A DNA stretch of 27,178 bases from an uncultured archaeon (GTDB taxonomy: Archaea; Asgardarchaeota; Heimdallarchaeia; Heimdallarchaeales; Heimdallarchaeaceae): NCBI GenBank assembly GCA_964514425.1, contig CAZEQQ010000001.1:1-27178 (forward strand), read 5' to 3'. Under the pieces are notes generated by a model that saw only the letters and a list, made by a program, of their open reading frames with translations, was not told the origin of the DNA and ran no database searches. Of the stretch, positions 8,127 to 24,821 are shown piece after piece (position 1 is the first letter of the stretch; every line of letters begins with the position of its first letter). Position numbers and translations under genes: made by a program.

Positions 8127-9944
8127 TTAATCCTGTATTTTAATAGTTGCTTGCTGTTGTCTCAAAGGTCCTTCTGATTTCACAGTAAGAACAATTTTCA
8201 CTATTTCACCAATGTTAATTCGCTTGATATGGCATTTAACATTGCTTCCTTCAACTTGAACATCTACAGTAGGAGGTGTATGTGCAGTGTATTCTGAATT
8301 AAATATTGGTTGTGTTACCAGAACATTGTCTAATGGTACCTCTCCACTATTTTCTACAGGTATCTCTATTTCGAACTCATTTTCTGTTAATTTCTTGAAG
8401 ATTGAAGTTATCTTGTAGGAACGTTTTTTGTAGTCAACAATTAGTTTAGGTTCTTTTCCTTCAAACTTTGCTTCTGTTCTGTAAGCTTTTGTTGGATTAG
8501 GTGCAAAGGCATCGATGATTGCGGGAGCAGGGTGATCACCACCGACTTTGGGCTTATTAGCTTTTCCAATCACTTTAACTTTCACAATTTCACCAGGAGC
8601 GATTTCTAAAGCTTTTAAGTCATAGTGATATTTCCTTACTTCAGAGATATCTTCGGGTTTAGGAGGTAATACTTCTTCTACTTTTTCTTCTTTGTCCCCT
8701 TCTAATTCCTCGAATGTTGCGACTTCTCTATGTTCTTCTTGTACTTTTACTTCTTCTTTAGGTCTTTCAAGAAAATCAATATCTAAAGCTTTTTGTGCGG
8801 ACTCAGCTAATACTTTATCGACCATCATATATGCAGGAATTGTATCTTCAATTTTTAATGAACCGACATTACTTGTTCCACTATTTTTAATGTCAATTGT
8901 TGCAACAAGTGGCACTACGGTATAAGTTGTAGCATGAGCTGGTTCAAATGTTTTTACAACATCAACTTTTGTAACATTTATGATATCATTGTCTTTTTCA
9001 TAGTGTATAACTGAATGTTCAGTTACTTCATATTGAACATAATAATCGAAGGATTTTGTTATTTCAGGGTAATCATTGGATGTAACAACAATTTGTTGTT
9101 TCCATGATAATTGATCAGATTTAGCGTCAATATGTTCTTTGGGTTCTTGATTGAATTTGTCTACATCGTTGACAGAAATTGTCACTTTGGTAAGCATTAG
9201 TTCAAACTCACTGCCATTTCTTAATCCAAATTCTACATTCCATTGGTTAGCAGTATCACTTTCTAAAGCTTTTACTTCCAAATCTACATTATCAGCTTCA
9301 GCTTTAATAGAAGGTGTTATTGAACTCATTTTGCTATTTCCTTCACATTTGCAGAATATTTGTCCTGTTTTATAAGGTTGTACAGTAGTGGGATGACAAA
9401 GTGAGGATACTATAAGTGTTGCACTTTCTCCAGGTTTTAAGAAAGGTATAACCCATTTTGCTTTCCTTGCATCTGTTTCTATAGTAATTTCTCCAGGAAA
9501 AGGATCAATTGCTCTAATTTCTTTTGTGTCAATAGGTAGATATTTTTCAACTTTGATGTTTTCCAACTTAAACGTAAAATTGTTTTTCACTGTTATTTGG
9601 AAAGCCAAGTTTTGATCTATTCCAAAAACAAGATCTTTATTTTTAACATTAATTGTAGTTCCATCAAAATTGGTATCAACCTTTTCATTTATTTCGAGTA
9701 AGGGATTAACAGTAGTTCCGTAATTTCGAGTAAATGATTTACTTGCTTCAATATGAGGAACTGTTTCTTCAGGAAAACCTGAGATATCAGCACCTATTTC
9801 AGCACGTAGGTCAATACCCCATAGGGTAGTACTTGAACTTTTATTGTTTATGCTCAGAACACCGTTTGAGTCAGAAGAAACAATCTTTCCCTTATTATCA
9901 GCCTTAATATTAAGATTTTCTTCTAAATGAATATTTGCTTTCAT
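8127..9944 (-). CDS. 605-aa soluble multi-beta-sandwich protein: mu-homology-like N-terminus, DUF11-like Ig folds, acidic insert
   Basis: Repeated (I/V)xNxG...(K/V)(I/V)ED/Q.(I/L)P and W.I..L.PGE motifs; no signal peptide or TM segment; Glu/Lys/Pro-rich insert at about 8650-8765. Confidence 0.6.
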   Translation of the reverse strand: MKANIHLEENLNIKADNKGKIVSSDSNGVLSINNKSSSTTLWGIDLRAEIGADISGFPEETVPHIEASKSFTRNYGTTVNPLLEINEKVDTNFDGTTINVKNKDLVFGIDQNLAFQITVKNNFTFKLENIKVEKYLPIDTKEIRAIDPFPGEITIETDARKAKWVIPFLKPGESATLIVSSLCHPTTVQPYKTGQIFCKCEGNSKMSSITPSIKAEADNVDLEVKALESDTANQWNVEFGLRNGSEFELMLTKVTISVNDVDKFNQEPKEHIDAKSDQLSWKQQIVVTSNDYPEITKSFDYYVQYEVTEHSVIHYEKDNDIINVTKVDVVKTFEPAHATTYTVVPLVATIDIKNSGTSNVGSLKIEDTIPAYMMVDKVLAESAQKALDIDFLERPKEEVKVQEEHREVATFEELEGDKEEKVEEVLPPKPEDISEVRKYHYDLKALEIAPGEIVKVKVIGKANKPKVGGDHPAPAIIDAFAPNPTKAYRTEAKFEGKEPKLIVDYKKRSYKITSIFKKLTENEFEIEIPVENSGEVPLDNVLVTQPIFNSEYTAHTPPTVDVQVEGSNVKCHIKRINIGEIVKIVLTVKSEGPLRQQQATIKIQD

Positions 9945-10641: not shown

Positions 10642-10917
10642 TTATTTATTTTTTGTCTTTCTACGTTTAAGTTTGAAAGAGATCATAATGCCTAATGTAA
10701 TCCATGCAATCATTAAAATACCAATAGATTGCCATAATATCATCATATCATCAACATTTTGAGAGATTAAATAAGAAACATATATCCATACAGGAGGAAG
10801 AATAGCCAAAGTTAGAGCCACAATTTTGAATATAGGTTTTTTTTGTGTTTTTCTTTCTTTTTCAGTTTCTTTCTCTTTTTCAGTCCTATTTTTGCCAATA
10901 GTTTCTTCTTCAGCCAT
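10642..10917 (-). CDS. Small 2-TM membrane protein
   Basis: Charged N-terminus, two hydrophobic helices, basic C-terminus; SD GTGA. Confidence 0.75.
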   Translation of the reverse strand: MAEEETIGKNRTEKEKETEKERKTQKKPIFKIVALTLAILPPVWIYVSYLISQNVDDMMILWQSIGILMIAWITLGIMISFKLKRRKTKNK

Positions 10918-11050: not shown

Positions 11051-12079
11051 ATGACGAGAACAATCTGTGTGTACTTATTCGGCAGTGAACCTGAAATTAG
11101 GGCAAAATTAGCTGGAAAGTTAGGAAAAAAGGGAACTGCTTCTGATATACGACTATACAGTTATAGTAAAGATTTTGTTATAGAGGTGGTCGACCCAATT
11201 CAATTCCCTCAAAAGAAACTAAGTTTGTATCAAACTGCTTTAATGACAGATGTTCCAATAATTTTGATACCTCTTTCAGGACCTGATGTGTATACGGGTG
11301 AATTTGCTTTGTTACTTGAAGCATTAAAATTTAGAAACGGAATTATTATTATCGCACATGAGGATGAATATGTCAATGTAAATGAGATTAAAGAGAAAAT
11401 TCAGAAAATTTTTACTAAATTAGAGATAAGTAAATTCCCGATTTTAGACATAAATTTCTCGGATGGTGAATCTTTGCTTAAACTAAAGGAGTTGATTTGT
11501 CTTCAAGCAGAAAAAAGACCAATTTATTCTTTTTCTCCACAAGAGGATATTTCGAGAATCGATGTTGACCATATTTTTCCTGTAACGGGTGTAGGGACAG
11601 TAATTTTAGGGAGAATACGTGCAGGCCAATTAAAAAGAACAGAGAAGTTATTTGTTTTTCCCTCTAAACGTACATGTATTGTGCGTTCTATACAAATCAG
11701 TGATGTTGAACAAAATAGCGCAAATGTGGGTGACAGAGTAGGATTAGCGCTTAGAGGGTTGTTGCCAAAAGATGTTGAAAGAGGTTTTATTTTATCTAAT
11801 TCCGATAAGTGGGAAATAAAGAAGAGATTGAGAGTGAGGTTAACTGCTTTACCTTACTCAAAAATTCCTGAAAAAGGGAAAACACGTCATATAATAATAG
11901 GATTGCAATGTGTTCTCGCGACTGTCGTAGATATTGAAAAAATCTCTGAAACTGAGAGTAAATATTGGGTTGACTTAGAGTTAGACGAAGAGATTACTTT
12001 TACGTTTGACGAAGCCGCTTACCTCGTCGACTTAAATAATAAACCTTCTACTATTGGTTTTTGTGAAATTAAAGAATGA
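11051..12079 (+). CDS. Archaeal SelB-like protein (aSelBL) with degenerate G-domain and EF-Tu domain II
   Basis: LGKKGTASDI, IDVDHIFPVTGVGTVILG, VRSIQ, VGDRVGLAL; canonical P-loop absent. Confidence 0.85.
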   Translation: MTRTICVYLFGSEPEIRAKLAGKLGKKGTASDIRLYSYSKDFVIEVVDPIQFPQKKLSLYQTALMTDVPIILIPLSGPDVYTGEFALLLEALKFRNGIIIIAHEDEYVNVNEIKEKIQKIFTKLEISKFPILDINFSDGESLLKLKELICLQAEKRPIYSFSPQEDISRIDVDHIFPVTGVGTVILGRIRAGQLKRTEKLFVFPSKRTCIVRSIQISDVEQNSANVGDRVGLALRGLLPKDVERGFILSNSDKWEIKKRLRVRLTALPYSKIPEKGKTRHIIIGLQCVLATVVDIEKISETESKYWVDLELDEEITFTFDEAAYLVDLNNKPSTIGFCEIKE

Positions 12080-22328: not shown

Positions 22329-24821
22329 CTATAATTCACTTAATAGTTTTTTTAAGGCATCAACCTTATCTGTTCGTTCCCAAGTAAATTCAGGTTCAGT
22401 ACGACCAAAATGTCCATATGCAGCTGTTTTTTTGAATATTGGACGTTTCAAGTCAAGTTCAGCGATTATATGACCAGGACGAAAATCAAAAACTTTATTC
22501 ACTAAAAAGTGTATTTTTGCAAGTTCTATTTTCTCTGTACCAAAACAGTCAATATTAATTGACAAAGGAATAGGCTCCCCTATAGCATATGAAACCTGTA
22601 TTTCACACTTTTCTGCCAGTTCTGCAGCAACAATATTCTTTGCTGCATAACGAGCATAGTAAGAAGCAGAACGATCCACTTTTGAAGCATCTTTACCAGA
22701 GTTATGACAGATGAAACCATTCGCGGTAAAAGTATGCATTCCTGGAACCTCAAAATCATAAACATGAGTTCGTCCTTTAGAGATACTTTTTATTTGTGTA
22801 TAATAGTGATTAAATACATAGAAACTTTTTAAGTTTTCATAATCCAAATCGCCTTCAAATTTATCTTTGTAAGTATCTAAGAATTCAATTAGTTTTGTAT
22901 AAGTCAAGTTTTTTGTCCCTTTAGAACTTGGATTTCTTAACCATCGTCCTATATTTGCATTATCCGCTTGATGTTCTTTTGAAGACAATTTATCCCATAG
23001 TCGTTTTACTCGTAATCTTTGGTGAGGAATAATTTTGAAGTCTTGTTTTAACGACAGATCAACAGAATTCAAAATTATAGCCTTTCTAGGTAATCTAAAG
23101 CCAATATGTTTTTGGAAAAGTTTTACGCTTGAACTACCTTTAATTCTTAGATGATAACGCATTCTTTTTGGATGAATCTGTCTCCCTTGAATAAAATAAG
23201 TATATTTTCTTGGATCAATACTCTGAATAGCACTTACAATATCAAAATTCAACAACAATTGTTGCGTTTGTTTTATAAGAGGTAAGGAAGTAGATGCTAA
23301 ATTTATTTCAATAGAGTTCATATTCCTACCTGTTTTTCTAACAGTACCATCTGTATCAAATAAACCTTGGAGAAATGCTGCAACGACAGGTTTAGGAGAG
23401 GTAAATACACTTTTGGGTATTTGCTTTTGCCAAGAGCGCTGATAATCTAATCCCATATGATAAAGATATGCTCTTAACTCTACACCACAATAATGTGCCC
23501 AATGACCAAAAATTTTACCTTCATCACCGAAGAGTCTTCTGTATAGGTTTTGGACAATAATTTTCATCTCATCATCGCAAACACATACTTGGACACCATC
23601 CTTTGAAGTACATCTACCATCACCTATCAACAATCCCATCAAATAGCTATAATCTTCTGTAAGAGTGTCTGGAAAGTTAAATTCATTGCTACGGAAGGTT
23701 CCTTCTTTATGTTCAAAATCGAATTGAATTTTGTGTTGAGAGCCAAATAATCTATTTTTTTTCTGAATAGCTATCCAATCATCAGGTTCTAGGGAATCTA
23801 ATCTTCTCCAAATATAATTTCCGTTCTTATCTATAACACGTATATTTTGATTTTCTGTACCTTCTAAACGATATCCATCTAATGTTTCAACAATTATGGT
23901 GGTCATTTCACCATTATCAATCCATCTGCCTAGAGGTGTAGGTGAGATATCAGTTTTTATTAATGTACCTTCCTCTACATTACTGAGTTCTGAAATTGGC
24001 TTGGTACCATATTCATAATTAACTAAAGAATCTCCTGAAATGCAAAACGCTCCTCCACCATGGTTTTCAACACCATGAGAGTCTACAATGATTTTTCTTC
24101 CTGTTAGTCCAGAGTCGCCATGTGGCCCTCCAACAACAAACTTACCTGTACGGTTGATATAGATTTTAGTTTTATCATCCACTAAGTCCATTGGAATAAC
24201 TTGTTTTATGACATGTTCCATTATACCTTTCTCAATTTCTTCATGGTTCACATCTTCTGTATGCTGAGCTGCAACAACTATTGCGTTGATTCTAGATATT
24301 TTACCGTTAGTGTATTCAATAGAAACCAAACTTTTACCATCGGGTCGTAAAAATGGTAATAAGTTACTCTTTCTAGCTATTGCAAGTTGTTTTGTTAATT
24401 TATGTGCAAGAACTGTAGCAAGAGGCAAATATTCGGGAGTTTCGTTACAAGCATATCCAACCATAATTCCTTGGTCGCCAGCTCCTTGAGTATCAAGTGA
24501 ATCTCTTACTACGCCTTGTGCTATGTCAGGAGATTGAGAGTGAATTACATTAAGGATAGCACAGCCTCTATAATCGAAACCAATGGAAGAGTCATCGTAG
24601 CCTATCTCTTTTATCATTTCTCTTACAATGTGCTGATAATCTATGGCTATTGGTTTAGTTGTGCTTATCTCTCCTCCAATTAATACTAGTCCTGTTGTAA
24701 CAAAAGTTTCACAAGCTACATGAGCATCAGGGTCACTTTGTAAAATCGCATCAAGGATAGCATCAGAAATTTGATCAGCTACTTTATCAGGATGTCCCTC
24801 AGTAACAGATTCTGAAGTCAA
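22329..24821 (-). CDS. metK: Methionine adenosyltransferase (bacterial/eukaryotic type), intein-containing; the real start may be ATT at 24839
   Basis: [35 protein letters not shown]|SGKD split by the intein, TAAYGHFGR; spliced length 382 aa from TTG. Confidence 0.97.
22701..24044 (-). mobile_element. 448-aa intein with a LAGLIDADG homing endonuclease
   Basis: Starts with Cys (CISGDS), ends His-Asn with Ser at +1; [10 protein letters not shown] and [10 protein letters not shown] motifs; block F VYDFEV. Confidence 0.96.

Follow-up and report, generated by a model that had tools for sequence, protein, structure and literature searches.

The mu-homology domain (MHD) is a two-subdomain beta-sandwich which, in the mu subunits of adaptor protein (AP) complexes, in COPI delta and in the muniscins, recognises short peptide motifs in cargo and accessory proteins. 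Known binding sites include the YxxPhi pocket of mu2, the WxxF site of delta-COP and the DPF site of the muniscins, and the hallmark of the domain is a nested sandwich that is discontinuous in sequence. Here we describe a candidate archaeal relative, encoded within a 27,178 nt stretch of DNA (the window; forward strand, G+C ~32%) from contig CAZEQQ010000001.1 of assembly GCA_964514425.1, a Heimdallarchaeaceae (Asgard) archaeon. In most placements, the Heimdallarchaeia are the nearest group to the eukaryotes. The gene occupies 8127..9944 on the minus strand, per the open reading frame list and its translation, and encodes a protein of 605 aa (P0001). We think it likely that this soluble, cytoplasmic protein is, over its first ~320 residues, a true and very divergent MHD homologue.

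The closest described proteins are the candidates of Eme et al. 2023 (Nature 618:992, PMC10307638), who report both mu-subunit domains in most Asgard phyla, unfused, and whose Table S3 holds 44 "Adap_comp_sub PF00928" entries with a distribution called sparse, due to high divergence. In the literature searched, this was the only study to join Asgard archaea with mu-homology, muniscin or Adap_comp_sub, and in papers on structure-based eukaryotic signature proteins, adaptor proteins are mentioned in passing only. The Jord-, Hel-, Hermod- and Lokiarchaeal entries among the listed rows of Table S3 share the conserved motifs of the P0001 family. Both kinship and a shared architecture were found: like P0001, the Eme candidates carry an MHD-like module at the N-terminus and DUF11-type sandwiches after it, measure ~590-720 aa and have no longin domain. 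P0001 is a divergent Heimdallarchaeaceae member of this published, uncharacterised family, which is near-universal in Asgard. In contrast to the Eme candidates, the P0001 group falls under the Pfam cut-off, differs in its C-terminal half, and possesses an acidic loop of ~50 residues that is peculiar to it and contains an invariant ATFE. Among the listed Table S3 entries, none was found to hold the N-terminal motifs of the P0001 orthologue group, and the one Heimdallarchaeaceae entry among those rows is a different sequence with none of the family's motifs.

Two other described systems are relevant for comparison. In the eukaryotic proteins with an MHD (AP-1 to AP-5 mu, COPI delta, FCHO1/2, SGIP1 and Syp1) the domain is C-terminal, whereas in P0001 it is N-terminal; P0001 additionally has ~96 extra residues in the module, trailing CLIPPER-type sandwiches and no detected tetramer partners. 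The CLIPPER/DUF11 domains of adhesin stalks (PF01345; PDB 9IFR; bioRxiv 10.1101/2025.04.25.650565) are exported, occur as tandem repeats and often contain an isopeptide bond. In contrast, P0001 carries no export signal, and one of its CLIPPER-like sandwiches is nested in a second, yielding the MHD arrangement.

A previous reading of this DNA, made from the letters without database searches (the sequence-only reading), had proposed a possible MHD in an Asgard protein related to trafficking adaptors. It named the predicted topology and the distribution in Asgard as checks, and named a string of independent DUF11/Ig domains without interleaving, or the lack of any MHD signal, as outcomes which would speak against it. 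The named orthologues of P0001 all come from Heimdallarchaeaceae or Heimdallarchaeota genomes, in keeping with the Asgard origin it had assigned. Nine full-length orthologues are 606-613 aa long and 47-57% identical to P0001, and the start position is kept in all nine. No signal peptide or transmembrane helix was found in P0001 (Kyte-Doolittle means over 19 residues peak at 1.15, and the protein has a charged N-terminus), which bears out another claim of the sequence-only reading. The full-length AlphaFold2 model has a predicted local distance difference test (pLDDT) score of 91.9 and a predicted template modelling score (pTM) of 0.78. P0001 is a cytoplasmic, soluble multi-beta-sandwich protein.

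To describe the module, AlphaFold2 was used without templates on residues 1-390, with an alignment of 79 diverse family members (A2) as input. The resulting model is all-beta, with a mean pLDDT of 95.9 and a pTM of 0.86. A Foldseek search of the PDB with this model returned MHDs in all of its top 50 places (mu2, mu1, mu3, mu4 and delta-COP), with a best E-value of 1.8e-10 and template modelling (TM) scores by target of at most 0.70, and MHD representatives took the first ten places of an exhaustive structural search. The MHDs outrank every single-domain match, with twice the residues aligned and both subdomains in one rigid superposition. Because the single-domain matches extend over model residues ~80-325 although only ~120 residues are aligned in them, one sandwich must be discontinuous in sequence, i.e. 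nested. The predicted model thus contains two nested beta-sandwich subdomains which superpose on solved MHDs as a single rigid unit, the two-subdomain topology that the sequence-only reading had looked to such a model to reveal. Among AlphaFold DB clusters, the first five matches are archaeal "DUF11 domain-containing proteins", followed by eukaryotic mu and MHD proteins.

Sequence searches yielded a weak signal which is specific to mu subunits. The Pfam gathering scores are 31.6 bits for PF00928 (Adap_comp_sub) and 24.6 for PF01345 (DUF11/CLIPPER), with a cut-off of 24 for TIGR01451. The PF00928 value is an operational threshold and does not define the fold in structural terms. Collinear sub-threshold matches to PF00928 were retrieved for five of the 10 orthologues, the best being P0003, of which residues 4-184 align to positions 16-199 of the 259 in PF00928 (27.8 bits, E 2e-6). 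A more distant relative, P0037, passes the cut-off with 40.9 bits over PF00928 positions 12-236 of 259. The same genome also encodes, on another contig, a 618 aa paralogue (P0011; genome G000, contig C378, L002:525-2381, plus strand), which has a net charge of -66 and an acidic N-terminal extension of ~40 residues. P0011 scores 39.6 bits with PF00928 and passes the DUF11 cut-off as well, on overlapping residues, and it is collinear with P0001 over ~370 residues (BLASTP E 6e-11, 22% identity). When the profile built from A2 was compared to 177,635 PDB sequences, the 24 best matches were all AP mu chains (top E-values 3.5e-4 for AP-3, 0.01 for AP-2 and 0.06 for AP-1), with family positions 108-214 aligned to AP-3 mu 291-397. 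PDB searches with P0001 or P0037 by phmmer, or with a profile of 10 orthologues, retrieved nothing useful; it took the 79-sequence profile to reach the mu subunits. Taken together, the mu-specific profile matches and the structural searches put the likeness to MHDs far beyond chance and support the kinship with MHD adaptors put forward by the sequence-only reading, and the nesting and these profile matches are the opposite of the independent, MHD-free string of domains which would have spoken against it.

The features of the gene are as follows, all on the minus strand of the window.

8988..9944, minus strand: MHD-like module, residues 1-319; the structural alignments to MHDs all end at 318-321.
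9669..9944, minus strand: opening portion of the outer subdomain, residues 1-92, with six strands (DSSP of the model); PF00928 positions 16-~120 align here in P0002 and P0003.
9294..9632, minus strand: inner subdomain, residues ~105-217, also a DUF11/CLIPPER-type beta-sandwich.
8988..9287, minus strand: residues 220-319, additional beta strands together with those closing the MHD-like module (DSSP, conservation).
8460..8972, minus strand: second beta-sandwich region, residues ~325-495, of DUF11-repeat type and split by the acidic loop (TIGR01451 at 349-371; strands 327-387 and 437-491, pLDDT >90).
8640..8762, minus strand: disordered acidic insertion, residues ~395-435 (pLDDT <50 at 395-425), in the Heimdallarchaeaceae orthologue group only.
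8703..8735, minus strand: short motif in the disordered loop, residues 404-414, E-R-E-x-A-T-F-E-x-[LIM]-[ED] (orthologue alignment).
8130..8453, minus strand: C-terminal beta-sandwich, residues ~498-605, DUF7507/CLIPPER_2-like (DUF7507 matches at ~530-577 in orthologues; strands 500-603).

The sequence-only reading had placed the MHD likeness at 9300-9944 (residues 1-215). The five segments it quoted are present in the order claimed, at residues 6-32, 74-89, 113-140, 151-177 and 196-209, and the likeness is indeed found there, but the module extends to residue ~319 (window position ~8988). Residues conserved across the family include G28, N34, W42, Y75 and E87 in the first part of the outer subdomain, W164, which is also counted among the module's conserved positions, and E228, W235, N243, S245, F247, W281 and P293 in residues 220-319. 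The residues of the module which lack a eukaryotic counterpart probably lie within 220-300. Further Ig-like domains and an acidic linker had been expected after the module; beta-sandwiches and an acidic disordered segment do follow, but the "linker" is a lineage-specific insertion of ~50 residues. At the C-terminus, the stretch G-P-x-R-Q-Q-Q-A-T-I-x-I (residues 592-603, 8130-8165, minus strand) is near-invariant across the 10 orthologues, with R-Q-Q-Q-A-T-I as its invariant part, which is unusually strict for a C-terminal strand.

The acidic insertion is contained in aligned segment 388-438, which in the 10 orthologues is 51-59 residues long and consists of 30-40% Asp+Glu, as compared to 20-28 residues at the same loop position in the wider family. 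Within the loop, the 10 orthologues share R406, A409, T410, F411 and E412 without exception. The conserved stretch at 404-414 may act as a linear motif, and the F-x-x-[LIM] pattern of the loop recalls the tyrosine-type sorting motifs bound by eukaryotic MHDs.

The family's distribution in Asgard is broad. The orthologue profile (A1) retrieved a match in 326 of 400 Asgard genomes, including 76 of the 90 high-quality genomes, and in 78 of 85 genera, which answers favourably the question of phyletic distribution raised by the sequence-only reading. Outside the order to which the archaeon belongs, matches to this profile cover only residues ~2-372, so we regard ~2-372 as the conserved module. Of 30 genomes from the family to which this archaeon belongs, 12 encode a full-length orthologue of P0001. 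By PF00928 alone, a match was found in only 21 of 101 Asgard genomes (over the cut-off in five of the 101), always in genes also found by the family profile (for example G002:C1, G005:C42 and G113:C5). This sparsity is consistent with Eme et al., who described a "sparse distribution, due to high divergence".

Beyond Asgard, a profile search of 1.84 billion representatives gave 221 matches, 127 of them at E <=1e-10. Ten of the 221 were looked up, and four of these were named: three are Promethearchaeota (Asgard), and one, matched in the inner subdomain only, is a DUF11 repeat protein from a bacterium. The whole 390-residue module is common to an ESM Atlas cluster of 52 archaeal members (TM score 0.83, 381 residues aligned) in which the most frequent phylum is Thermoplasmatota, which means that the module occurs outside Asgard as well. 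PF27408 (AF2028_C) is found in 23% of this cluster.

With respect to mechanism, all characterised MHDs (AP mu, delta-COP, muniscins) bind short peptide motifs, and motif binding is thus the simplest function to transfer to P0001. Partner proteins would be recognised by the MHD-like module through short linear motifs, the C-terminal sandwiches may serve as rigid spacers or as an assembly surface, and the acidic loop with its invariant A-T-F-E-x-[LIM] could act as a docking or self-regulating peptide. Peptide binding, the part played by the loop and any connection with membranes are all inferred. A stand-alone, muniscin-like role as a peptide-binding adaptor or scaffold can be proposed tentatively as the most likely mode of action, and we would put it at somewhat below even likelihood.

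We would like to note that several observations weigh against reading P0001 as an MHD homologue with an adaptor-like function. P0001 itself scores only 17.6 bits with PF00928 over its first 230 residues, under the 31.6 cut-off; identity to eukaryotic MHDs is 10-15%; and the structure of the module is a prediction, in which ~96 residues inside 1-319 are without a eukaryotic counterpart. AlphaFold2 left the motif of the acidic loop undocked, with pLDDT <50. No longin domain (PF01217, Clat_adaptor_s) was found in P0001, in its N-terminally extended relatives or in the 91%-complete genome, and for PF01602 (Adaptin_N) the genome yielded only HEAT matches of 14-17 bits, a chance level also reached in control bacteria. 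No conserved operon with GTPases, ESCRT or other trafficking genes was found. The occurrence in Thermoplasmatota means that the fold need not signal eukaryote-like trafficking.

The alternative which best survives accepts the module as a genuine MHD relative and holds that the protein is unrelated to membranes or cargo, being instead a cytoplasmic structural or scaffold protein, for example a cytoskeleton-associated one, with the fold recruited only later into eukaryotic coat adaptors. In its favour, the genome holds no detected AP/COPI partner domains, the same 390-residue module occurs in the cluster whose most frequent phylum is Thermoplasmatota, a lineage which is not known to have other trafficking-type signature proteins, and trafficking genes are missing from the gene context, where a metallo-beta-lactamase-fold gene, seen in other Asgard families, is the one neighbour that recurs. 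Nothing directly opposes this alternative, which differs from a motif-binding MHD homologue only in the nature of the ligand; we consider it less likely than not, but about as open as the adaptor role.

A second alternative, which we find highly improbable, is that P0001 is an ordinary archaeal DUF11/CLIPPER string of Ig domains, of the kind found in adhesin stalks or surface layers, and that its MHD likeness is a generic beta-sandwich resemblance. The overlap with DUF11 is real, in that residues 109-180 of P0001 pass PF01345 (38 bits vs 24.6) and TIGR01451, a DUF11-type repeat, scores 29.4 against its cut-off of 24 at residues 349-371. A fibrillar adhesin bound for export would be expected to have a signal peptide, tandem stalk repeats and an anchor. 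No such context was found for P0001, which lacks a signal peptide, a transmembrane helix and a sorting signal; the module is single-copy and non-repetitive, with a fixed architecture rather than a variable tandem array. MHDs, moreover, surpass all single-domain structural matches, with twice the aligned residues across both subdomains, and the profile matches in the PDB are to mu subunits only, with no adhesins among them.

Finally, it is hardly credible that P0001 serves as mu-like subunit in a cryptic archaeal heterotetramer of AP/COPI type with partners too diverged for sequence detection, since, although Eme et al. 2023 found each of the AP domain types in at least some Asgard archaea, there is no longin on P0001 or on the relatives with N-terminal extensions, PF01217 is absent from the genome and PF01602 present at chance level only, and neither the window nor the 21 sampled loci described below hold longin or propeller neighbours. 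The N-terminal extensions of the longer relatives contain no Pfam domain. Because the MHD of P0001 begins at residue 1 without a longin, and because no sigma- or adaptin-like partner was detected, we do not regard P0001 as a mu subunit; the genome is 91% complete, so the absence of AP partners stays short of proof.

The genes surrounding P0001 in the window are housekeeping genes, namely enolase, AIR-synthase-like, CYTH, bactofilin-like, FttA/aCPSF1, RsmB and an intein-containing MetK. The CYTH-X-AIRS-enolase synteny is kept only among close relatives and breaks in locus L005. Neighbour clustering took in 21 sampled Asgard loci, and the sole recurrent neighbour was a gene of ~233 aa with a metallo-beta-lactamase fold (Lactamase_B_3), directly upstream on the same strand in nine of the 21. 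This neighbour occurs in genome families f13, f14, f30 and f31 (for example L010:7268-7975, L011:9379-10068, L013:9241-9954 and L020:7202-7906) and not in the lineage of the window. Loci L012 and L018 likewise show no longin/propeller/MHD block, and there the neighbours are Mrr-like, nucleotidyltransferase, UvrD helicase and histidine kinase genes.

Three other genes of the window were observed in passing. At 10642-10917 (minus strand), a 91 aa protein has a Lys/Glu-rich head and two hydrophobic segments, and its match to actinobacterial CrgA, barely over the Pfam cut-off (26.8 vs 24.8 bits), is probably driven by composition. At 11051-12079 (plus strand), a protein of 342 aa is seen by Pfam only as EF-Tu domain 2 (residues 182-248), with no GTPase-domain family at E <=0.001. 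At 22329-24821 (minus strand), an S-adenosylmethionine synthetase is split by a LAGLIDADG intein (Intein_splicing, LAGLIDADG_3).

Returning to P0001 as a divergent MHD homologue, the inner subdomain has residues which reach or come near both Pfam models, DUF11/CLIPPER and PF00928, and which in P0011 exceed both cut-offs. This double match suggests that the MHD may have arisen from nested CLIPPER-type sandwiches, an origin which is not stated in the literature searched. A wider proposal, which we regard as speculative and on balance doubtful, is that the eukaryotic MHD would descend from a cytoplasmic archaeal ancestor with nested CLIPPER sandwiches. Near-universal in Asgard and found also in Thermoplasmatota, this would be an old archaeal module rather than an Asgard-only signature, and in the Heimdallarchaeaceae the F-E-x-[LIM] of the acidic loop (YxxPhi-like) would be a built-in regulatory ligand.

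For the family as a whole, the structural models presented here strengthen a candidate which in 2023 was based on sequence only, show the family to be far wider in Asgard than Pfam alone reveals (326/400 vs 21/101 genomes), and connect the MHD with DUF11/CLIPPER, a prokaryotic domain. Since the module also occurs in Thermoplasmatota and no AP partners could be detected, it should not be taken as evidence of eukaryote-like trafficking. For the Heimdallarchaeia, a confidently modelled MHD-like module provides a concrete protein with which peptide and membrane binding can be tested.

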